DNA of 64,000 bases from Candidatus Bathyarchaeota archaeon. GTDB lineage: Archaea > Thermoproteota > Bathyarchaeia > 40CM-2-53-6 > RBG-13-38-9. Made by a program: the position numbers and the translations under genes. Shown here piece after piece: positions 45,689-62,249 of this stretch. A model generated the notes under the pieces. The model searched no databases. It had not been told where the DNA came from and saw only the letters and a list, made by a program, of their open reading frames with translations. Where the stretch lies: contig CAWECG010000001.1 of NCBI GenBank assembly GCA_963807605.1, positions 416,001-480,000 on the forward strand, written 5' to 3'. How positions within the stretch are numbered: the stretch's first letter is position 1; every line of letters begins with the position of its first letter.

Positions 45689-45716
45689 TGGTGCGAGGAG
45701 GCGGATTTGGGCACCA
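45689..45716 (-). other. tRNA(Leu)-like 3'-end fragment inside a TGGTGC/GCACCA palindrome
   Basis: Minus strand reads CAAAT CCGCC TCCTCGC A CCA (T-loop end, 5-nt T-stem, 7-nt acceptor strand, discriminator, CCA). Confidence 0.55.
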
Positions 45717-51645: not shown

Positions 51646-52083
51646 TTGAACAAGCATGATTATGGGCCCACCGTCAGACTGGCTATTATCTCACTTGTAT
51701 TATGCGGGCTAATCTTTCCCCTGTTCGTAACAGGATTAGCGCAACTCCTGCTACCCTATCAAGCAAACGGGGAGATAATCCAGTTCAATGGACGTTATGT
51801 CGGTTCCATTCTGATTGCACAGAATTTCAGTTCACCCATGCTCTTCCATCCAAGAAATGATTCAGCTTCCGGCGTGGATCCCGACATTACTCTTCAGGAC
51901 GGTTATTCTCAGATTCCAAGGATCCAGGCAGCAACTGGAATCCCCTCGGAAGTACTCAAACACGTTGTTGATGAAAACGTCGAGAGAACGTTATGGGTTG
52001 TTGGCGAACCATACGTTAACGTCCTCAGACTCAACCTGGTACTTGTCAAGGAAAACCCTTCAATTTACAAGTCATTCAGCTGA
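51646..52083 (+). CDS. kdpC: K+-transporting ATPase subunit C (short form)
   Basis: PYQANG, GS.LIAQ.F, FHPR, SASGVDPDI, VNVLRLNL. Confidence 0.93.
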   Translation: MNKHDYGPTVRLAIISLVLCGLIFPLFVTGLAQLLLPYQANGEIIQFNGRYVGSILIAQNFSSPMLFHPRNDSASGVDPDITLQDGYSQIPRIQAATGIPSEVLKHVVDENVERTLWVVGEPYVNVLRLNLVLVKENPSIYKSFS

Positions 52084-52259
52084 CACTTACCACATTAGAA
52101 TGCTGTCAATGTTCGATGGTGTTGGCTTTTCTCGTTGCAAGTTACGCGCATGAGTTAAGCCCTCCCACACTAGGCCACACTATAGTCTAGGACAGACAAA
52201 ATACTTGTATAACCTCGTGACTCTAAATTAAGACAAATTTGTGTCTTGGGGCAGTCCTA

Positions 52260-53279
52260 ATGAATGGAAAGCTCCACCAGCAGATTCTGATCTGGTGGCG
52301 GGCCTTCAGATATCACTTCGTACCACCAAGTATATTTCCAGCTACATTGGGGGCGGCGATCAGTTTGAGTGTTGATAAAACCTTTTCCACGGAGATTTTC
52401 TTTCTCGTTCTGCTAGGTGTGGTCGTGAATCATTTTGCTCTAAACATGACAGATGACTATTATGACTTCAAACACGCTGTAGATCAACAGAAACCCGGAG
52501 AAAAGAACCCGTACACTGGTGGAAGTGGCACCCTAAGCAGCGGCCTCATAACGCCACATCACATGTTGATGGCTTTTGTCGTATGCTACGGCATTACAAC
52601 TGGAATCGGAATTTACCTTGCTTGGATTAAAGGCTGGCCCATCTTGGCATTTGGAATGTTTGGCGTTTTCTGCTCGATCTTTTACACGATGCCTCCCATA
52701 AGTTACTCTCATCATGGGTTAGGCGAGCTAGGTCTCCTTGTGAACTTTGGATCAATCATAGGTTTAGGCTCCTATTTCGTTCAAGCTCACAAGCTCTCGC
52801 TGCAGGCTTTTCTAGCAACGTTACCTATGGGAATAATGCTATTCTCCATGATAGTGATAAACGAAATTCCAGACTATGAGACAGACAAGATGGCGGGAAA
52901 ACTGACTCTTGTCGCTAGATACGGTAAGAAGGCGGGCATAAAAATCTACATTTTGAGCTGGATCTGCACTTATTCAGTGATAATCGGCGCCGTTGCCCTT
53001 CAGTTAATCCCCAGGCTCTGTGTAATCGCGCTGGCCTCGGTCCCTCTGGCCTACAGATCAATCGAGTTTCTGAAACATCACTATAACAGCCCCACGGAGT
53101 TGGCACCGGCAAATCTTGATATGATCAAGGCTCACAGCGTCACCTCCATAGGCCTTATCGCCGCTTATGCTCTACAAGGGTTGATCAATGGAGCCAGCGC
53201 TGTCCAGTTGGGCATAATTATCCTGCTATTGGTGGGGTTCTACGCCCCAGCGGCGATCCCTCTGCTGAAAAAGCACTAA
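52260..53279 (+). CDS. MenA-like UbiA-superfamily prenyltransferase
   Basis: NMTDDYYDFKHAVD, YTMPP.SY..GLGE, NEIPDYETDKMAGK.TL. Confidence 0.85.
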   Translation: MNGKLHQQILIWWRAFRYHFVPPSIFPATLGAAISLSVDKTFSTEIFFLVLLGVVVNHFALNMTDDYYDFKHAVDQQKPGEKNPYTGGSGTLSSGLITPHHMLMAFVVCYGITTGIGIYLAWIKGWPILAFGMFGVFCSIFYTMPPISYSHHGLGELGLLVNFGSIIGLGSYFVQAHKLSLQAFLATLPMGIMLFSMIVINEIPDYETDKMAGKLTLVARYGKKAGIKIYILSWICTYSVIIGAVALQLIPRLCVIALASVPLAYRSIEFLKHHYNSPTELAPANLDMIKAHSVTSIGLIAAYALQGLINGASAVQLGIIILLLVGFYAPAAIPLLKKH

Positions 53280-53446
53280 AGGTGACAGACTCATTTGCTG
53301 CTACACGCGGTGCCCAGCCATCAAGATGCCTAGGAAGTCTACGCTTGTTGTCAGCGGACCTCAAATTATAGAACCTCCACAATATTTTTTATTAATGAAT
53401 GATTGAGTAACCTGCCAGCCTTAGGGCGTATGACGAGGATCAGGCT

Positions 53447-54316
53447 ATGAAAAAGCTGCTAGGTTTCATAAAAATGACCAGACCATACGTCCTTCTATCT
53501 TCAAGTTTCATTTTCATCGGTTCCGCATTCCTTGGTGTTAAAGGCATCCCATCCGCGTGGCCTTTCTTCATAGGCTATTTGGCAGTAGTCTTGGCGACAG
53601 CAGCCGTACACACATTCAATGATTATTCCGATTGGAAAACCGATGCCAAGAACCCGAGAACTTCAAAACGGCCGATCCCAACTGGTTTGATATCGCCGAA
53701 CGAAGCTCTCTTGGCTGCGCTGGCTTACGGGTTGGGCGCACTTGCATTGGCTCTTCTGCTTAATACCCCTTCATTCTTGATAGCTCTAGTTGCCGTTCCT
53801 ACACCCTTCGTTTACGCCTACTTCAAAAGACATAGAATTCCCTTCGGCTTCATCTGCCCAGCAGCCGCGGCAATTCTCCTAACACTCTTCGGAGCCGCAA
53901 CATTGACAGGTGAAGTCATGGCTGGCCAAGTGTGGCTCTTATTAGTTGTGAATCTACTTTGGGAGCCTGGGCGCGATTTCATTAGCGAGATCCAAGACTC
54001 GTCAGTCGATAAGACCTCAGGGTTCCTCACATTGCCAGTCATCTTGTCGCCAAAAGGAGCCGCTAAATGTGTTCTTGCTCTTTTTGTAATGACCTCAATT
54101 GCAGGTGTACTAGCAGGAATACCTGCAAGACTTGGAGGTCCATATCTCATTATTGCCTTGTTAGCGGGTATTTGGCTGACTTACAGAAGTACAGAGATTG
54201 TTAAAGAGCCGACCACTAAGAATGCTGTGAAGATGCGGATCCGTGCTCCGAGATACCTGATGGCAATTGTTATTGCCATCATAATTGGCCACATCATTGG
54301 TGGCAGCATAATATAA
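53447..54316 (+). CDS. UbiA-superfamily prenyltransferase (DGGGP-synthase/UbiA-like)
   Basis: MTRP, FNDYSDWKTD.KN...RPIPTG, EIQD..VD...TLP. Confidence 0.85.
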   Translation: MKKLLGFIKMTRPYVLLSSSFIFIGSAFLGVKGIPSAWPFFIGYLAVVLATAAVHTFNDYSDWKTDAKNPRTSKRPIPTGLISPNEALLAALAYGLGALALALLLNTPSFLIALVAVPTPFVYAYFKRHRIPFGFICPAAAAILLTLFGAATLTGEVMAGQVWLLLVVNLLWEPGRDFISEIQDSSVDKTSGFLTLPVILSPKGAAKCVLALFVMTSIAGVLAGIPARLGGPYLIIALLAGIWLTYRSTEIVKEPTTKNAVKMRIRAPRYLMAIVIAIIIGHIIGGSII

Positions 54317-54687
54317 TCCAGAATAGTGGCAGAGAAACCGCGAGCGTAATTATTTTGATTTGGATTGTTTGGCCTAACGGTTTCTTTATCCTCAATCCTA
54401 TTATCACTATTGAGGCTAAAACAACTGCTAATGTAATTGCCGCGAAATAGACTGACCATGATGTTTCTGTCTTATTCGTCGTTTCCGTCCTTGTCTGATT
54501 GTTTGTTGCTTTCGCGCGCGCTAGCGACGCTTGTGTCGTATTTGTGGACATGCATCATTGCTGCTTCTACCGTGGCTCATAGTAGTCATCCGCTTCCTTC
54601 ACGTGTTACACTTCTATGTCCGGCTATCCCAGATGAAGTGGTAGGGGCTAGCCCAGCATAGCTGTATAGTCCTCTAGCGCGCGTTAC

Positions 54688-55989
54688 TCACAGACATTGA
54701 CCCTCAGTTTTCAGCGCTTCCTTCAAGATCTTTACGGCACAATATCCGGAGCACATTGAACACGTCTCGGGATTTTTCAGTCTGATTCTGTCGCGAATCT
54801 TCGCGGCTTTCTCTGGATCCAAGGCATTCTCCAGCTGACTTTCCCAATCAAGGTTCGCTCTAGCTTTTGCCATGGCCAAGTCACGAGCGGCCGCTTTTGA
54901 TCCAAGCTTTGCAATGTCGACTGCGTGTGCCGATATTTTGGTAGCCATAACACCTTCTTTAACATCTTCTAAAAGGGGCAAACCCAGATGCTCTGAAGGC
55001 GTCAGGTAACAAAGGAAGTCAGCTCCGGCGAGTCCTGCAAGGGCTCCACCGATAGCTCCAACGATGTGGTCGTATCCCGGTGCTATCTCAGTTCCAAGGG
55101 GACCTAGTACATAGAGAGGCGCCCCCTTGCATATCGACTTTGCAAGCAGAACATTTGATTCTATTTCGTTAAGCGGTAGATGCCCAGGTCCTTCAACTAT
55201 AGCTTGTACATTTGCAGTCCTGGCTCTTTCCACGAGTTCTCCTATTGTGAGCAACTCCTGAATTTGAGGCCAGTCGGTTGAATCGAAAATGCATCCTGGT
55301 CTAAGGCCATCGCCTAGGCTTAGTGCAAAGTCGTATTTTGCAGCCAATTCCAGAAGGTAGTCGTAGTTTGCGTACAAGGGATTTTCTTTATTATGATGCA
55401 GGATCCATGCGGCTAGAAAGGTGCCTCCGCGGCTGACAATTCCCATCAGGCGTGGGTGCTTTGCTATCCGTTTGACGATTTGTTGTGTTACCCCGCAATG
55501 GACTGTCATGAAGTCAACGCCATCTTTGGCGTGTTCTTCTATCGTGTTGAAGATGTCATCTTCGGTCATGTGTATAATTGAGCCCCTCTTCTCAGATGCT
55601 TCGATAGCGGTTTGATATATGGGGACGGTTCCAATTGGAACATTAACATTCCTAAGAATCGACCTTCGTATATCATTCAAGTTGCCGCTTGTGCTAAGAT
55701 CCATAATGGTGTCTGTGCCATACTTGACAGCGATCTTAGCCTTCTCGATTTCTAAATTGAGATCACATAAGTCAGGGCTTGTTCCTATGTTTGTGTTGAT
55801 TTTGGTGCGCAGCCCTTTTCCAATTCCAATTGGATGAACATTTTCGCGTTGATTATTTCTGGCTATGATTACGGTTCCTTCAGCTATTCGTTGACATATC
55901 GTTGAAGGCAGCTCATCTTCATCCTTGGCTACTGTACGCATTTCTTCTGTTATTTGTCCCTTCTTCGCAAATCCTATTTGGGTTGCCAA
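54688..55989 (-). CDS. thiC: Phosphomethylpyrimidine synthase
   Basis: KINTNIGTS, MDLST, GTVPIYQ, VSRGG, EGPGH, YDHI, CSMCSGYC. Confidence 0.97.
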   Translation of the reverse strand: MATQIGFAKKGQITEEMRTVAKDEDELPSTICQRIAEGTVIIARNNQRENVHPIGIGKGLRTKINTNIGTSPDLCDLNLEIEKAKIAVKYGTDTIMDLSTSGNLNDIRRSILRNVNVPIGTVPIYQTAIEASEKRGSIIHMTEDDIFNTIEEHAKDGVDFMTVHCGVTQQIVKRIAKHPRLMGIVSRGGTFLAAWILHHNKENPLYANYDYLLELAAKYDFALSLGDGLRPGCIFDSTDWPQIQELLTIGELVERARTANVQAIVEGPGHLPLNEIESNVLLAKSICKGAPLYVLGPLGTEIAPGYDHIVGAIGGALAGLAGADFLCYLTPSEHLGLPLLEDVKEGVMATKISAHAVDIAKLGSKAAARDLAMAKARANLDWESQLENALDPEKAAKIRDRIRLKNPETCSMCSGYCAVKILKEALKTEGQCL

Positions 55990-56064
55990 ATTGATTTATC
56001 GCTCCAACCCAAGAAAAGCCGAGTTAGATCTGAGTTAGAGTGCACCAAATCAGGAATTCGGTAC

Positions 56065-56156
56065 ACGCCCCCTCCGCCAGCATTATCTGAATGAGGTTCT
56101 AGGGTCGGCGGTTCACCAGACCGCCCTCTCAGCCGGCTAACCAGCTCCCCTGGCGC
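56065..56156 (-). ncRNA. TPP riboswitch aptamer in the thiC leader
   Basis: GCGCC-AGGGG..CTGAGAG..GACCCTAGAACCT..GATAATGCTGGCGGAGGG-GGCGT: CUGAGA, ACCC/GAACCU, UAAU and GCG.AGGG landmarks; P1 GCGCC/GGCGU. Confidence 0.9.
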
Positions 56157-56185
56157 TTGCTTGTCTGAAATCGACAATACTCCGG

Positions 56186-56201
56186 AATTTAAAGTCTTTT
56201 G
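56186..56201 (-). promoter_or_regulatory. BRE/TATA promoter for the riboswitch-thiC transcript
   Basis: CAAAAGAC TTTAAA about 30 nt upstream of the aptamer 5' end. Confidence 0.6.
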
Positions 56202-56402
56202 TAGATACCTGCATAACTGTTCTAGCGCGCGCCTGAAGTATATGTCGGCTGGATAGAGATAACCGTGCGCGCTGACGTCGAGGAAGGTTCATATGTGCAA
56301 TATCGGAAGGGGTAGGCATTGTTAGCTCCTCAGTGAGCGTTAGCCGAAAAAGAGTCGGTAGACAAAGGGTCGCGATATCACAATAATCATGATGAAAGAG
56401 AT

Positions 56403-59393
56403 TTGCTCACAGGACACGCCTCGCTTCAAGAAGAACTAGAAGACATTGAGACATACGCACAGCCTTTATCCAAAATATCAGAAAAGTGGGGTTCAGATCT
56501 TGAACGTGGTCTCTCCGACAATGAAGCCAAAGAAAGACTTCGAGAATATGGTCTGAACCTAATTCCAAAGATAAAGCCTAGCTTTTACAGGATATATCTT
56601 GCACCCTTCCTCAATTGGCTGATAGATATCTATTTGATTATTAGCATAGTCTTGGCATTTCTTGCATTCTTCGTGCTGCATGAGGCTTATGGGCCAGTAA
56701 CCTTCTGGCTCTCAGTGATTAGTGTCAACGCCGTCGTAGCCGTGGTGCAGGAGGCCAGAGCGCAAAAGAAAATGGAGGCGCTCCAGAAGCTTTCCGCTTC
56801 AAAGAGCAAAGTAGTCCGAAAGGGTAGGCTCCTCGAAATACCATCAGAGCAGATAGTTCCAGGAGATATCATAAGACTTGAACAGGGAGACAGAATCCCT
56901 GGTGATGCTAGGATCATCAACGCGTCGAGCCTCAGGGTGAATGAAGCATCTCTAACTGGAGAGTCTGAAGAAGTAGAAAAATTCGAGGACGACACACCAG
57001 TTGAACAGGGCACTCCTATTCCCGGAAGGAGAGACATGGTATTTCTAGGCACATTCGTGATTGCAGGCACGGCAAAGGCACTGATAACACAGACTGGAAG
57101 AGCAACTCAACTCGGAAGAATAGCAGGGAACATGGAAGGCCTTGACACTTATGAAATACCTCTACGCACTAAAGTCAACCGGCTGGCAAAATATCTTGGG
57201 CTTGCTGTTTTGACTTATCTCAGCATCTCGCTAACATATCACATAACTTCTCTTTACTTGCACAATAACCTCTTCGTAGCGGGTATCTTCAACACACCAT
57301 TAGTAGCAAGAAGAGTAGTCGAAAGCTTGATCACGGCTATGTCGATCATGCCAATCAATATCCCATTTTTAATTACAGTTGTTCTTCTCACCGGTGTTTT
57401 GACTATGGCCAATAAGCAAGTCATAATACGCGATTTGAATGCCGTTGAGAGCCTTGGTCGAGTATCCATAGTTTGCTCCGACAAAACTGGTACCATCACT
57501 AGAAACGAAATGACGGTAAAGTGGATTTGTTTACTTTCTAGTCGAAAAGATTACCTTTTCGGTGTCACGGGTGTCGGATTCCGCCCCAACGGAAGGATCA
57601 TAGAAATCGATCCAGATTCAAGTTTCGAAGAGACTATTAAAAAAGAGCCCGAACTTCATCATGGAAATGAGATCGAAATAGGATCTGAAACGCCTCTTGA
57701 ATACCTTATCGTATCAGGATTGCTCAACAACGACAGCACAATCACCAAAGGAATGGTGGAGAGCCCTGACGAGGAGAGAGAGGAAGATGCTTACCGTCCC
57801 TTAGGCGATACTACTGACGCCTCGATAGTAACATTATTCCACAAATCAAAACTCCAGGAAGAAATATACAGATCTAGATTTCAAGAAGCCTTCAATTATC
57901 CGTTTGATTCAAATTTAAAGCGTACAACAAGAATCCTCAGAGACAACAAGAACAACCGATATGCTGTTTTTACGAAAGGAGCTACCGAGATCCTCCTACC
58001 ATTTTGTAACTACATCACAAAAGGCGTCGTCACTGAAGTGGACATCCTAACAGACAAGGAGAGGGCTCAAATCTGCACAAGAGCCGATGGTTTCGCGTCG
58101 TCAGGTTATAGGGTCATCTCATTTGCTTTCAAGTATCTGGAAGAACTACCGTCGGCCAGTAAGAGCGTAAGAGAACTTGCTGAGGATAATCTAACCTATC
58201 TCGGCTTCGTGGCCATCATCGACCCCCCAAGGAAGGATGTTCACGAATCGGTGCTTGAGGCTAAGAGCGCAGGAATAAAACCTGTCATGATAACCGGCGA
58301 CAACTTGAAAACGGCGCGAAGCATCGCAGAGCAAGTAGGAATCGCCGGAGAACTCGATTTGGCTGTCGAAGGACATGAAATCCAGACCCTACCCGATGAA
58401 GATTTCTTGAGAACGTCTGTGTTTGCTAGAGTCACTCCAGAACATAAAATGAGTATAGTGGAACGTTACAAGAGACAGGATCACGTTGTGGTGGCAACTG
58501 GCGACGGTGTCAACGATGCACTGGCGATCTCTGTAGCTGATGTCGGCATCGCTATGGGCATTACTGGAACGGACGTTGCAAAAGAGGCTGCAGACATTGT
58601 AATAGCAGACGACTCGTTCAACTCAATTATTAGAGGTATCCGTGAGGGCCGAGGTCTCTTTCAGAAAATTCGAGCCATAATTTTCTTTTACATAGCGGTA
58701 AACCTCGCGGAAGCCTTGATCTATTTTGGTTCTTCATTAATCCCCAGCTTTCATCTACTGAACATGGCGCAACGTATCTATATCTTCACTACAGCGCATA
58801 CGATACCACCACTCGGGATTATTGTAGATCGCGTAAGTAAGGATGTGATGAAAGAAAAGCCACGAGACACAGAAGCCATTTTGAATAAACGACTGGTTAT
58901 CGCGCTCCTACTCTTTTCAGCATCATTGGGACTCATGCTTTATGCTGTCTATTTCTTCACCCTGGGCGGTACCATTCCTGTCTTCGCAGGAAACAGAATA
59001 GGATATGTTCCGGACTTCAATCCCAACAATCTCTTAGACTCAGTTAATTGGAGTCAGGCGAAGGCTCGCACAATGCTGCTTACGGTCATATTTGTGGCAG
59101 AGTGCGCATTGGTAATCTCCTTAAGAAGGATGAACAAATCGTTCAGCAAAATATTAAAAGAAGACAATTATTGGATTATCTGGCCGCTCATACTGTTCGT
59201 TCCACTAGCTCATGTGTTATTGATGTATGTCCCAGCGATTCAATTGTTTCTGGCAGTTCGCTTAGGTATTGATCTCGAACTTATTACACTTACATGGATC
59301 GATTGGATTATTGCTTTCGCTGTTGGATTGACTCCTATCGCGTTATTGGAGGCTTGCAAATATTGGGTGCGCAAGAAAAGATCCAACTTTTAG
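56403..59393 (+). CDS. P-type ATPase, P2A-like scaffold with atypical membrane site (PINIP)
   Basis: TGES, CSDKTGT, KGA.E, MITGD, GDGVND; M4 reads SIMPINIP instead of AIPEGLP. Confidence 0.93.
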   Translation: MLTGHASLQEELEDIETYAQPLSKISEKWGSDLERGLSDNEAKERLREYGLNLIPKIKPSFYRIYLAPFLNWLIDIYLIISIVLAFLAFFVLHEAYGPVTFWLSVISVNAVVAVVQEARAQKKMEALQKLSASKSKVVRKGRLLEIPSEQIVPGDIIRLEQGDRIPGDARIINASSLRVNEASLTGESEEVEKFEDDTPVEQGTPIPGRRDMVFLGTFVIAGTAKALITQTGRATQLGRIAGNMEGLDTYEIPLRTKVNRLAKYLGLAVLTYLSISLTYHITSLYLHNNLFVAGIFNTPLVARRVVESLITAMSIMPINIPFLITVVLLTGVLTMANKQVIIRDLNAVESLGRVSIVCSDKTGTITRNEMTVKWICLLSSRKDYLFGVTGVGFRPNGRIIEIDPDSSFEETIKKEPELHHGNEIEIGSETPLEYLIVSGLLNNDSTITKGMVESPDEEREEDAYRPLGDTTDASIVTLFHKSKLQEEIYRSRFQEAFNYPFDSNLKRTTRILRDNKNNRYAVFTKGATEILLPFCNYITKGVVTEVDILTDKERAQICTRADGFASSGYRVISFAFKYLEELPSASKSVRELAEDNLTYLGFVAIIDPPRKDVHESVLEAKSAGIKPVMITGDNLKTARSIAEQVGIAGELDLAVEGHEIQTLPDEDFLRTSVFARVTPEHKMSIVERYKRQDHVVVATGDGVNDALAISVADVGIAMGITGTDVAKEAADIVIADDSFNSIIRGIREGRGLFQKIRAIIFFYIAVNLAEALIYFGSSLIPSFHLLNMAQRIYIFTTAHTIPPLGIIVDRVSKDVMKEKPRDTEAILNKRLVIALLLFSASLGLMLYAVYFFTLGGTIPVFAGNRIGYVPDFNPNNLLDSVNWSQAKARTMLLTVIFVAECALVISLRRMNKSFSKILKEDNYWIIWPLILFVPLAHVLLMYVPAIQLFLAVRLGIDLELITLTWIDWIIAFAVGLTPIALLEACKYWVRKKRSNF

Positions 59394-59479
59394 TCTCGTT
59401 GGAATCTTCTGAGGTCAATGTTTTACAGACACAAAAAATTCGAGCACGCTAGAGCTTCGTATTCGTGTGTACAGTAAAA

Positions 59480-59507
59480 TGGTGCGGGGGAGGGGATTCG
59501 CGCACTA
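59480..59507 (-). other. tRNA(Leu)-like 3'-end fragment (att-like) at the aglB stop
   Basis: Minus strand reads CGAAT CCCCT CCCCCGC A CCA; framed by the TGGTGCG/CGCACTA inverted repeat. Confidence 0.65.
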
Positions 59508-62249
59508 CTTTATTAGCTTGCTCACGGTCACTACCACTATCTTGCTTGTCATAGCCGCGTATTCTGCCGTTCCGGTCCACGATGCTCGCACATAATAGAC
59601 ACCTGCAGCCTCGGGAAGCCATTGAGGCGTGAAGACACCTTCTGCGGGCTGCCCAACTATCGTTGGAACCCAAGTCTTATTGTCCTTGCTCGTCTCAACG
59701 GTCACCTGCCCCTCTGAGAGCGGCGGAGATATCCTTACATCAACGCTCACATTCTTGCCGAAACCGACTATTGTTGGCGCCACAATCAACTTCACCTCTG
59801 GCATTCCCTTAGTGACGTTTAGTGCCTGGTAGGGGCTTGTTGCTGACGCATATTTGTCAGGAAGACCATCCCACCGAGCCCTGACCAAGTATCCGCCAAT
59901 AGATGGCGCCCAGACGTAACTGTAAGTTCCGTTCCCAGCCGTCTGGACGTCTTTTATGGAGAGCCAAGTACGGCCTTGATCCTCGGAGGATTGAAGATGC
60001 ACCGTTCGGTTGCCTAAAGGCCTTGACTCCTGATCGACGAGATTTCCTGAAAGCTGCTCCTTCTCAGGAAAGCTCACATTCATGCTTGCCAAGTTCAAGG
60101 TCATGTTGGTCCTTGTCAAGTATTTTACGTCATAGACTAGCACGAACCTATTTGATGAAATGAAGACAGGTCTGAAGAATTCATTCCCTTGAACCGGGGA
60201 GTAAGCGCCGGCCATCAACAGTCCGAGCAGTGTTGAGTTTGAGACTCCAACGTTATTGACTATGGTCTTGTTTGAGACAATCTTGTCAGCCACAGTTAGT
60301 ATACGGTCGTATCGTGTGTAGGCTGCCTGTCCTTCACCGACCCTCCTCGCGTAGTAGTATACAGTCTCGCCATCGAGTGTAGAGCCGTTGCTTATCCTAG
60401 CCATCCAATACCATTTGCTATCTTCACCAAAGCCGTAGAAGTGGACAGTATTGTTGCTGTTATACCAGGTTACTAGCAAAGTGATGTCGCTCACATTGTA
60501 TCTCTTCAGTATGGGCAGGGCTGTATCCAGATCAGAAAGAAAAGCGCGGCCAGTAACCGATATTTGGGTTGTGTTCATCGTTCCGTTATCTGTAAGAGTC
60601 TTCTTACCGCCAACGGTTGTTATCCAGTAGCCATAGTCCCACCAGGCAAGGACGACAGCATTGTTTGGGAGATTATCCTTCATCCACGTTAAAGCTTCAA
60701 GCCAGTCTCCAGGCGGGTTACTCACGACGGGAAGACTCGAAGTGACTATAGTGGCTGGAACATAAGCTGACTGGACGGCGCCAATAAATGTTGGTGTGAT
60801 TATCAAGAGCAGAACAAACATTATGGCAACACCGAATTCCTTGCCGACCTTTGTTGTGAAGCGGGTCTTTCTCTTTGGGAATATTACTTGTTCTCTTATG
60901 ATGTCCATAGCGGGTGTAGCAATCTGAGTGACCGCAATCGCTGCTAGAAGCGCAATAGCAGGCGCCATTATCGTCGAAGTTCTTACAAGGGACGCTCCAA
61001 AATATATGGTGGTGAGCCCAAAGACAATTATGAATATGTCACTGTTCCTGTGACGTTGAATAGCGAAGTAGAACCCGAATAGTGCAAGCAGAGGATATAT
61101 GCCAAGCTCGTGGTATATGCTGGCCCATGTGGCCATACGATTTTCTGCGACAGACTCTACTATCGGCATGTCAACTCTGTTTGAAGGATAAAGGACTGTC
61201 CAAAACTTGCCACCCAGTTCACTTATCAAGTGATGTTGTTGAAGGATAAAGGCTCCAACTATTAGAAGCAGAAGAACAGCTAAAATCCCTGACAGTCTAG
61301 TCCTATTGTTCTTGACTCTTTGGAAGAATTCGTATCCACAGAGTATTACAAATACCCCCGGGATAGCGTAGGTTGTCCATTCGCTTAGTGCTTGATAGCC
61401 TAGGTTTGGAAGCTGCACCATCACTAAGAAAGCAGAGCCGTAAGTGATTCCATAGGTCCAAAGGAGACGGCCATAGTATCTACCGAAAAGAGCAAGAACG
61501 AATACGAAAAGTGGTATAAGCGACAGTGCATACCGATAGGCCCCCCATCCTGCGCCGAGATAAGCCAAAGAGAGTCCCGACAGAAGTGAGCAGATTATGC
61601 CTGACCTTAAGGAACGTTCAGGAGAGATAGCCTTCAAATAGAAGTAAAATGCAAGAATAACCGTAAACACTCCTATTGTGTCATCCCCAAAGAAGCCTGC
61701 ACTCGTACGAAAGATATGCGCTGAATTGAAAGCTAGAAAGAGTGCCGAGAATATTCCGACACCGCGCCCCCACATGTCTCTTGAAAAAAGATAAAGGGCA
61801 ACGCATGCAGCTGTACCAAGGATTACTGGGAAGATTACGCAAAGGTCTAGTAAAGTGATCTGAATACCCACCGATTGTAGGAAAAGGTACAGCAACGCTG
61901 CCGTCATGGCCACCCCTGGATAGGCCTGTGTGATGAAGGGGCGGCCCCAAGGGTACCAGCTCATAGTATCGTGCCAACTGAAGTATGAGGTGAATCCATT
62001 GTTCACCATATACTCTGCTTGACGATAATTCACGTAAGGATCAAATTCTGTCAGGTAAAATCCCCATCTCAATGGAAGAATACGAATAAGAGCTGCCAGA
62101 CCAGCTATAACGGCAACACACAGAAAGTTCAGGTATGAAGCTCTTGGGATACTGCCGAGTGAGAGTCTAATATCACTAGCCCTGCGAGGAACCCATTCTT
62201 TCACAAAGGTTCTCACAGAACCTAGGAGCCCGGCTTTATAGTTGGTCAA
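59505..62249 (-). CDS. aglB: Oligosaccharyltransferase with C-terminal Ig-like extension
   Basis: EFDPY, ESVAE, WWDYG, DNGT, DSKWYWM; multi-TM N-half; about 200 aa beta-rich tail. Confidence 0.95.
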   Translation of the reverse strand: MTNYKAGLLGSVRTFVKEWVPRRASDIRLSLGSIPRASYLNFLCVAVIAGLAALIRILPLRWGFYLTEFDPYVNYRQAEYMVNNGFTSYFSWHDTMSWYPWGRPFITQAYPGVAMTAALLYLFLQSVGIQITLLDLCVIFPVILGTAACVALYLFSRDMWGRGVGIFSALFLAFNSAHIFRTSAGFFGDDTIGVFTVILAFYFYLKAISPERSLRSGIICSLLSGLSLAYLGAGWGAYRYALSLIPLFVFVLALFGRYYGRLLWTYGITYGSAFLVMVQLPNLGYQALSEWTTYAIPGVFVILCGYEFFQRVKNNRTRLSGILAVLLLLIVGAFILQQHHLISELGGKFWTVLYPSNRVDMPIVESVAENRMATWASIYHELGIYPLLALFGFYFAIQRHRNSDIFIIVFGLTTIYFGASLVRTSTIMAPAIALLAAIAVTQIATPAMDIIREQVIFPKRKTRFTTKVGKEFGVAIMFVLLLIITPTFIGAVQSAYVPATIVTSSLPVVSNPPGDWLEALTWMKDNLPNNAVVLAWWDYGYWITTVGGKKTLTDNGTMNTTQISVTGRAFLSDLDTALPILKRYNVSDITLLVTWYNSNNTVHFYGFGEDSKWYWMARISNGSTLDGETVYYYARRVGEGQAAYTRYDRILTVADKIVSNKTIVNNVGVSNSTLLGLLMAGAYSPVQGNEFFRPVFISSNRFVLVYDVKYLTRTNMTLNLASMNVSFPEKEQLSGNLVDQESRPLGNRTVHLQSSEDQGRTWLSIKDVQTAGNGTYSYVWAPSIGGYLVRARWDGLPDKYASATSPYQALNVTKGMPEVKLIVAPTIVGFGKNVSVDVRISPPLSEGQVTVETSKDNKTWVPTIVGQPAEGVFTPQWLPEAAGVYYVRASWTGTAEYAAMTSKIVVVTVSKLIK

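Follow-up and report, generated by a model that had tools for sequence, protein, structure and literature searches.

Which substrate is moved by a P-type ATPase in which key residues of the Ca2+-binding sites of its relatives have been replaced? This question is raised by a 64,000-nucleotide stretch of DNA from a Candidatus Bathyarchaeota archaeon (contig CAWECG010000001.1, positions 416,001 to 480,000; the whole stretch is here referred to as the window). Positions 56403-59393 of its forward strand form one open frame of 996 codons with a TTG start that encodes a P-type ATPase, and in this pump the PEGLP motif of helix M4 in P2A Ca2+-ATPases reads PINIP. An earlier reading of the sequence (the original prediction) had proposed an active pump with a non-canonical substrate, possibly a lipid, and a possible bearing on the origin of the P4 lipid flippases. 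Our best explanation is that the gene encodes an intact Asgard-type pump, acquired horizontally, that moves a small cation other than Ca2+ through a rebuilt site. We give this a probability of roughly 0.6, taken jointly with the statement that the PINIP family is distinct and ancient, typical of Asgard archaea and rare elsewhere, and sister to the prokaryotic P2A pumps.

A P-type ATPase with an altered transport site

The encoded protein shows all the features that define P-type ATPases as a superfamily, namely DKTGT, a TGES-type motif, GDGxND, a haloacid dehalogenase (HAD)-like P domain, and about 10 transmembrane helices. Its Pfam domains (Cation_ATPase_N, E1-E2_ATPase, Cation_ATPase, Hydrolase, and Cation_ATPase_C) make up the full P2/P3-type set, and the generic P-type model TIGR01494 is passed at 265.9 bits against a cut-off of 62.3. 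The coordinates of the open frame and motifs in the original prediction proved exact on recheck, and motif searches bore out its statement that TGES, DKTGT, GDGVND, and the NLAE motif of M5 are intact (Table 1). Among 189 unique members of the family described below, the TGES positions hold T in 188, G in 189, E in 189, and S in 185, and D360, K361, G363, and T364 of DKTGT are invariant in the family alignment. Judged by its sequence, the gene encodes an intact and probably working P-type ATPase, which would be expected to run through the usual E1-E1P-E2P-E2 (Post-Albers) cycle because TGES, DKTGT, GDGVND, and the SERCA-like fold are all standard.

To the transport site, we applied HMMER alignments with Listeria LMCA1 and SERCA2. 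These upheld the equivalences that the original prediction had drawn by eye, PINIP for PEGLP in M4 and F, A, and H in M6: the PEGL Glu corresponds to I318, N796 to F795, T799 to A798, and D800 to H799. The same alignments place N767 and E770 at the positions of SERCA N768 and E771 in M5, and alignment to SERCA2 places E900 at the M8 Glu (SERCA1 E908), a retained residue that the original prediction had missed. Three of the five site-I side chains thus survive in the pump, and the true loss is confined to site II. The alignments show site II to be lost and plugged with hydrophobic residues (E309 to I318 and N796 to F795), and they show a conserved site-I-like pocket, composed of N767 and E770 (M5), H799 where M6 is unwound, E900 (M8), and a new residue, N319, in M4.

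The predicted structure is consistent with this arrangement. An AlphaFold2 (AF2) model built from a 59-sequence family alignment (predicted local distance difference test [pLDDT] score, 84.1; predicted template modeling [pTM] score, 0.76) has M4 broken at residues 316-318 and M6 at residues 797-800. P-type pumps unwind M4 and M6 at these very places to form the transport site. When the model was compared with the Protein Data Bank (PDB) using Foldseek, the best 49 matches were all SERCA, SPCA, Na,K-ATPases, or H,K-ATPases, with SERCA in the E2 state at the top (template modeling [TM] score, 0.78), and no P4 or P5 structures were found among these 49.

The PINIP and His changes are neither private to this genome nor a product of chance. 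P-I-N-I-P or a near variant is present in all of the best 120 homologues, at 43-66% identity. Close orthologues that keep PEGL, which would have marked the substitutions as a peculiarity of this genome, were not seen; PINIP and the M6 His run through the whole family, both in the 120 homologues and in the 189 members. Across these 189 members, P317, E770, and E983 are 100% conserved, followed by Q790 and P802 (99% each), H799, K887, and D967 (98% each), N767 and P321 (96% each), and the M4 residues I318 (93%), N319 (92%), and I320 (91%). E900 is Glu in 164 of the 189 (87%). In a small subclade with PVSIP in M4 (P0070, P0079, and P0122, one of them labelled Bathyarchaeia), N767S, H799F, and E900Q change together and E770 stays, a coupled change that is expected if these residues act as one functional unit. 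The same subclade may represent either a derived specificity or a degenerate site.

The P2A Ca2+-ATPases (LMCA1, SPCA1/PMR1, and SERCA1/2) provide both the best sequence matches (LMCA1, E value of 1.5e-114) and the best folds, and they share with the pump the domain set, including Cation_ATPase_N and Cation_ATPase_C, the three catalytic motifs, the M5 Asn and Glu, and the M8 Glu. We therefore considered whether it might still be a Ca2+ (or Ca2+/Mn2+) pump that moves one ion through a modified site I. The retained equivalents of N768, E771, and E908 speak for this, and, a P2C-like pump aside, the genome encodes none of the canonical PEGLP/N..D kind. Public annotations also call relatives "Ca2+-transporting ATPase," and a 2021 survey of Asgard transporters reported that each of its five proteomes contains orthologues, with 39-47% identity, of a putative Ca2+-ATPase (Transporter Classification [TC] 3.A.3.2.21) (PMC7997004); these orthologues may belong to the PINIP family. 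Against this reading, site II, which is kept by all known Ca2+ pumps, including the single-site PMCA and SPCA (PMC4937031), is erased, the central Asp800 is His, and the family lies outside the P2A clade. None of the NCBIfam equivalog cut-offs is reached by the pump, TIGR01494 alone passing, and all Ca2+-ATPase equivalog models stand at about half of theirs (PMR1-type TIGR01522, 418.6 versus 798.3; SERCA-type TIGR01116, 392.9 versus 703.4). Because the site kept by all Ca2+ pumps is gone and D800 has become His, Ca2+ transport is unlikely, and we would give this alternative somewhat less than one chance in seven.

Distribution and probable transfer of the PINIP family

Across the 1.84 billion cluster representatives searched, the motifs switched sharply at about 450 bits. 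Above this score, M4 reads P[IVFW][NS][IFL][PVI] and M6 carries the His, whereas the proteins with lower scores all have PEGLP and N..D. The PINIP family is monophyletic (Shimodaira-Hasegawa-like approximate likelihood-ratio test [SH-aLRT], 94; FastTree support, 1.0) and, in trees built without eukaryotic P2 sequences, forms a separate clade outside the sampled prokaryotic P2A pumps and sister to them. No description of it was found in the literature searched, including that on the FUPA families and on Asgard P-type ATPases. A 2023 overview by Palmgren divides P-type ATPases into families P1 to P6 and expects further prokaryotic families (PMC10654040).

The search for PIN[IL]P-type pumps in archaeal genomes that had been suggested with the original prediction found them in 210 of 301 sampled Asgard genomes (genomes from the phylum of a "Promethearchaeota" locus), with one or two copies each and some in tandem, and in 3 of 401 sampled genomes from the host's own phylum. 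Two further archaeal phyla contained no true members (0 of 301 and 0 of 251 genomes), and none of 401 sampled Chloroflexota genomes had a family member. Many of the 210 positive Asgard genomes hold two copies, and tandem pairs occur at G436:C53:2701-8602, G463:C86:1226-7483, and G619:C13:22261-28300. Named members belong to Odin-, Thor-, Heimdall-, Hod-, Njord-, and Atabeyarchaeia, with a few from Bathyarchaeia, Nitrososphaeria metagenome-assembled genomes (MAGs), and Dehalogenimonas. The named members from outside Asgard all group in a single subclade of the tree with the Odin, Njord, and Atabey sequences, and the closest Asgard match to the pump has 64% identity, compared to 57-60% within its own phylum.

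Among the 40 nearest relatives of the genome (same genus, family, or order), no family member was found. One genome of the same genus, G001, preserves the site in an altered form. Its locus L157 (G001:C333, 1-820) matches window positions 55817-56217 at 96% identity, after which 186 unrelated bases replace 2,967 bp holding nearly the whole pump gene. Since the gene is reduced there to its 3'-terminal 209 nt, at 98% identity, most of it was recently lost in G001, and the chromosome is variable in the stretch that holds the pump. Given that the family is Asgard-wide, rare in the host's own phylum, missing from the 40 nearest relatives, and left as a remnant in G001, the gene can be regarded as a horizontally acquired accessory gene, most likely from an Odin/Njord-like Asgard lineage.

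The absence from all 40 nearest relatives and the near deletion in G001 would also suit a copy that is a dispensable, unused passenger, or an ATPase that transports nothing and serves in regulation, as would the TTG start and the fact that no clear promoter was seen. Against this, the frame is open over all 996 codons, the catalytic and family-specific residues are all intact, and conservation across the family argues for a selected transport function, so that we consider such a fate very improbable.

Relationship to P4 flippases

The original prediction had taken the Glu-to-Ile change in M4 as a mark of P4 flippases. This feature is present in PINIP, as in the PISL motif of P4 pumps of the ATP8A1/Drs2 type, and some family members read PISIP, but it is not specific to P4: P3 H+-ATPases likewise carry Ile or Val where PEGL has its Glu (PMC4937031), and two P3A-like genes in the same genome read PVALP in M4. 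A flippase-like pump for a lipid or bulky amphipath, with I318 as a hydrophobic gate like that of P4-ATPases and with the family as an archaeal sister or ancestor of P4 (and P5), would accord with the P-I-[N/S]-[I/L] pattern of M4, the Asgard-wide spread of the family, and the lipid-related neighbors (an oxidoreductase and a YhhN protein) of the pump in one Asgard lineage. The rest of the protein points elsewhere. Its A-domain motif is TGES and not the P4 motif DGET, no Pfam match to PhoLip_ATPase_N or PhoLip_ATPase_C (PF16209 and PF16212) was found in the pump, whereas the fetched P4 proteins carry both, and the P4 model TIGR01652 scores 114.1 against a cut-off of 431.25. In the alignment, the M5 Lys of P4 is missing from the family, and the family conserves two buried Glu residues and a His at positions that hold Leu/Thr in P4. 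The best fold matches are all of P2 type, and P4 and P5B sequences score alike on the family hidden Markov model (HMM) and the P2A HMM (P4, about 150 versus 155; P5B, about 240 versus 240).

A phylogeny with P4 and P5B references, likewise suggested with the original prediction, bears on the proposed relevance to P4 origins. The first trees contained three P4A and three P5B sequences, all metazoan, which had been fetched with two short typed baits. In these six-sequence trees, P4+P5 fell best next to the PINIP family, in keeping with the flippase idea, though this was indistinguishable from a position next to the family plus P2A (difference in log-likelihood [lnL] of about 1). This placement is not trusted, as it was reversed once we added 18 intron-free P4 genes of microbial eukaryotes, retrieved from metagenomes with a degenerate NLDGETNLK pattern. 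The final alignment had 53 rows and 840 columns, with 20 natural P4 and 3 P5B sequences; these trees are without eukaryotic P2/P3, P4B/C, and P5A, and all of their P5 sequences are metazoan.

With this sampling, FastTree recovered the family as sister to prokaryotic P2A (0.979) and P4+P5 outside all P2+P3. Approximately unbiased (AU) tests were run on fixed alternative placements under LG+F+G4 and the posterior mean site frequency (PMSF) model PMSF-C10; values are given in this order. The best tree again had P4+P5 outside P2+P3 (P = 0.79 and 0.72), and the second best had P4+P5 as sister to the family plus P2A (P = 0.56 and 0.66). A tree with P4+P5 and the family as sisters was 15-21 and 7-13 lnL units worse and kept AU P values of 0.05-0.12 and 0.10-0.25, with resampling of estimated log-likelihoods (RELL) support of about 0.05-0.11, a residue that still counts for the flippase idea. 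P4 alone as sister to the family was rejected (P = 0.023 and 0.030), as was a nested position of P4+P5 within it (P = 0.0004 and 0.0013). A position of P4+P5 as sister to P2A alone was also rejected (P = 0.002 under both models).

These tests disfavor a role for the family in P4 origins. A flippase-like function seems improbable to us, and the idea that the eukaryote-only P4 and P5 ATPases have their surviving archaeal sister lineage in the PINIP pumps is likewise a long shot. If the latter were true, the erased site II and hydrophobic M4 gate would have existed in Asgard archaea before the scaffold came into eukaryotic use for lipids, helices, and polyamines, and the substrate of the Asgard pumps may already be bulkier than a metal ion. 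Of the original prediction as a whole, the sequence evidence supports a pump that is intact, probably active, and non-canonical in its transport site; the lipid substrate and the P4 likeness are not supported.

Genomic context

The pump is surrounded by kdpABC, two UbiA genes, thiC with a thiamine pyrophosphate (TPP) riboswitch, and a convergent AglB/STT3 gene. The last of these (59505-62249, minus strand) and the two UbiA genes (within 52239-54316) are as the original prediction had described them. A functional link between the pump and aglB or UbiA was rejected, since the neighborhood is not conserved in 20 Asgard loci and thiC separates the UbiA genes from the pump. Across these 20 loci, no conserved neighbor gene was found, synteny being confined to the level of lineages, and no Rfam element was found upstream of the pump, either here or in eight Asgard loci. 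The context thus lends no support to a link with lipids, and no ion can be named from it.

One case of lineage-level synteny concerns four loci of a single Asgard lineage (L140, L144, L152, and L154), in which the pump adjoins a flavin adenine dinucleotide (FAD)-dependent oxidoreductase and a YhhN-family membrane protein. From weak Pfam matches, the oxidoreductase is possibly geranylgeranyl-reductase-like. In the window, kdpC (51646-52153) is represented by two overlapping open reading frames in different frames (145 and 112 amino acids [aa]), with the Pfam KdpC match in two stretches, and may contain a frameshift.

Repeats occur near the variable site. The 10-mer TAGCGCGCGC is present in 8 copies in the window, compared to 0.03 expected. 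Its copies at 54514 and 56223 form an inverted pair flanking thiC, and another copy lies at the L157 junction; the 10-mer resembles a terminal part of some repeated or mobile element. In addition, two 28-nt fragments beginning with TGGTGC (45689-45716 and 59480-59507) resemble reverse-complemented tRNA 3' ends and bracket a 13.8-kb block that comprises kdpABC, both UbiA genes, thiC, and the pump. ARAGORN found no tRNA genes in the window.

The 2.65-Mb genome encodes 12 P-type ATPases. The P2C-like pump among them (L011, G000:C1:385533-389111), located about 27 kb upstream of the window, reads PEGLQ in M4 and IDLGIDVLP in M6. P2C-like pumps of this kind are discussed as archaeal Na,K-ATPase-like. 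Two CPC-type copper pumps (L002 and L003; G000:C3:311227-311766 and C3:576115-576654) lie about 265 kb apart, are both 701 aa long, and have the same Pfam score and motif stretches, likely reflecting a recent duplication.

Table 1. Features of the pump gene and its surroundings, in window coordinates (G000, genome studied; G001, genome of the same genus)
Feature	Position	Strand	Remarks
P-type ATPase gene, PINIP family	56403..59393	+	996 aa, TTG start; open frame, Pfam, model scores
TGES, A-domain dephosphorylation motif (aa 185-188)	56955..56966	+	Motif search
M4 helix (aa 298-337), unwound at 316-318	57294..57413	+	Alignment and AF2 model
PINIP in M4	57351..57365	+	I318 in place of SERCA E309 gate residue; N319 new
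DKTGT, phosphorylation motif (D360)	57480..57494	+	Motif search
GDGVND, P-domain hinge motif	58500..58517	+	Motif search
M5 NLAE (N767, E770)	58701..58712	+	SERCA N768/E771, site I ligands; alignment
M6 (aa 788-808), unwound at 797-800	58764..58826	+	F795 for N796, A798 for T799, H799 for D800
M6 stretch QRIYIFTTAHTIP	58770..58808	+	Motif search
H799 codon in M6	58797..58799	+	SERCA D800 equivalent
M8 (aa 883-907)	59049..59123	+	Contains E900
E900 codon in M8	59100..59102	+	SERCA1 E908; aligned to SERCA2 M8 Glu
Gene part kept in G001	59185..59417	+	Last 209 nt plus 24 nt downstream, 98% identity (L157 588-820)
10-mer TAGCGCGCGC, copy at the pump	56223..56232	+	Promoter region; left breakpoint of the G000/G001 difference
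10-mer TAGCGCGCGC, all copies	625, 7925, 19902, 23679, 24981, 47175, 54514, 56223	54514 (-), 56223 (+)	Count in window
TPP riboswitch (RF00059)	56053-56161	-	61.8 bits versus gathering threshold of 54.3; upstream of thiC; shares intergenic region with pump promoter
thiC	54688-55989	-	Downstream of the TPP riboswitch

Proposed mechanism and candidate ions

We propose that the pump would move one small cation per cycle, bound by E770, E900, H799, N767, and N319, and that this ion would not be Ca2+. A small non-Ca2+ cation is our best guess for the substrate. By analogy with P3A pumps, H+ is plausible, because a protonatable His occupies the position of their proton-carrying Asp and they share a hydrophobic M4 residue with it. 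Also plausible is a borderline divalent metal (Mn2+/Fe2+/Zn2+ class), because the predicted ligand set combines carboxylate, His, and amide groups and the hosts are all anoxic-sediment organisms.

Two known families offer partial parallels. P3A H+-ATPases (AHA2/PMA1 type and the archaeal P3A-like pumps) share the hydrophobic M4 residue and a single protonatable residue at the Asp800 position, but the PINIP pump has His and not Asp there, carries the M5 and M8 Glu residues, and scores 348.1 against a cut-off of 615.5 on the P3A model TIGR01647; the P3A-like genes branch elsewhere. P6, represented by CtpE of Mycobacterium, is likewise a prokaryotic offshoot of Ca2+-type pumps without the M6 Asp, but in CtpE, PEGL is retained and Ile takes the place of the Asp (PMC10654040), whereas the PINIP pump has lost PEGL and has His.

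Several points weigh against the proposal of a horizontally acquired cation pump with a rebuilt site. The geometry of the pocket was derived by alignment to SERCA and not from measured distances, and the M8 Glu is not obligatory, with Ile at the E900 position in 11% of members. The PINIP family is without any characterised member, and the genomic context gave no hint, with no conserved neighbor, metallochaperone, regulator, or riboswitch found. With regard to transfer, its direction is read from the distribution alone, and the GC content of the gene (0.46) is the same as that of its surroundings, which suggests that the transfer was not recent or that the donor had a similar composition.

Significance

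The PINIP family would be a family-level addition to the P-type ATPases with an inverted ion-site logic, in which site II is erased and site I is rebuilt around a His. The gene travels and has entered Bathyarchaeia, MAGs labelled Nitrososphaeria, and Dehalogenimonas. Such pumps are named Ca2+-ATPases in public annotation and in at least one survey of Asgard transporters and are used to argue for eukaryote-like Ca2+ signalling, and this inference is doubtful if the proteins in question belong to the PINIP family. With about 70% of sampled Asgard genomes positive, the identity of the substrate would inform the membrane energetics or the metal economy of the archaea most closely related to eukaryotes.

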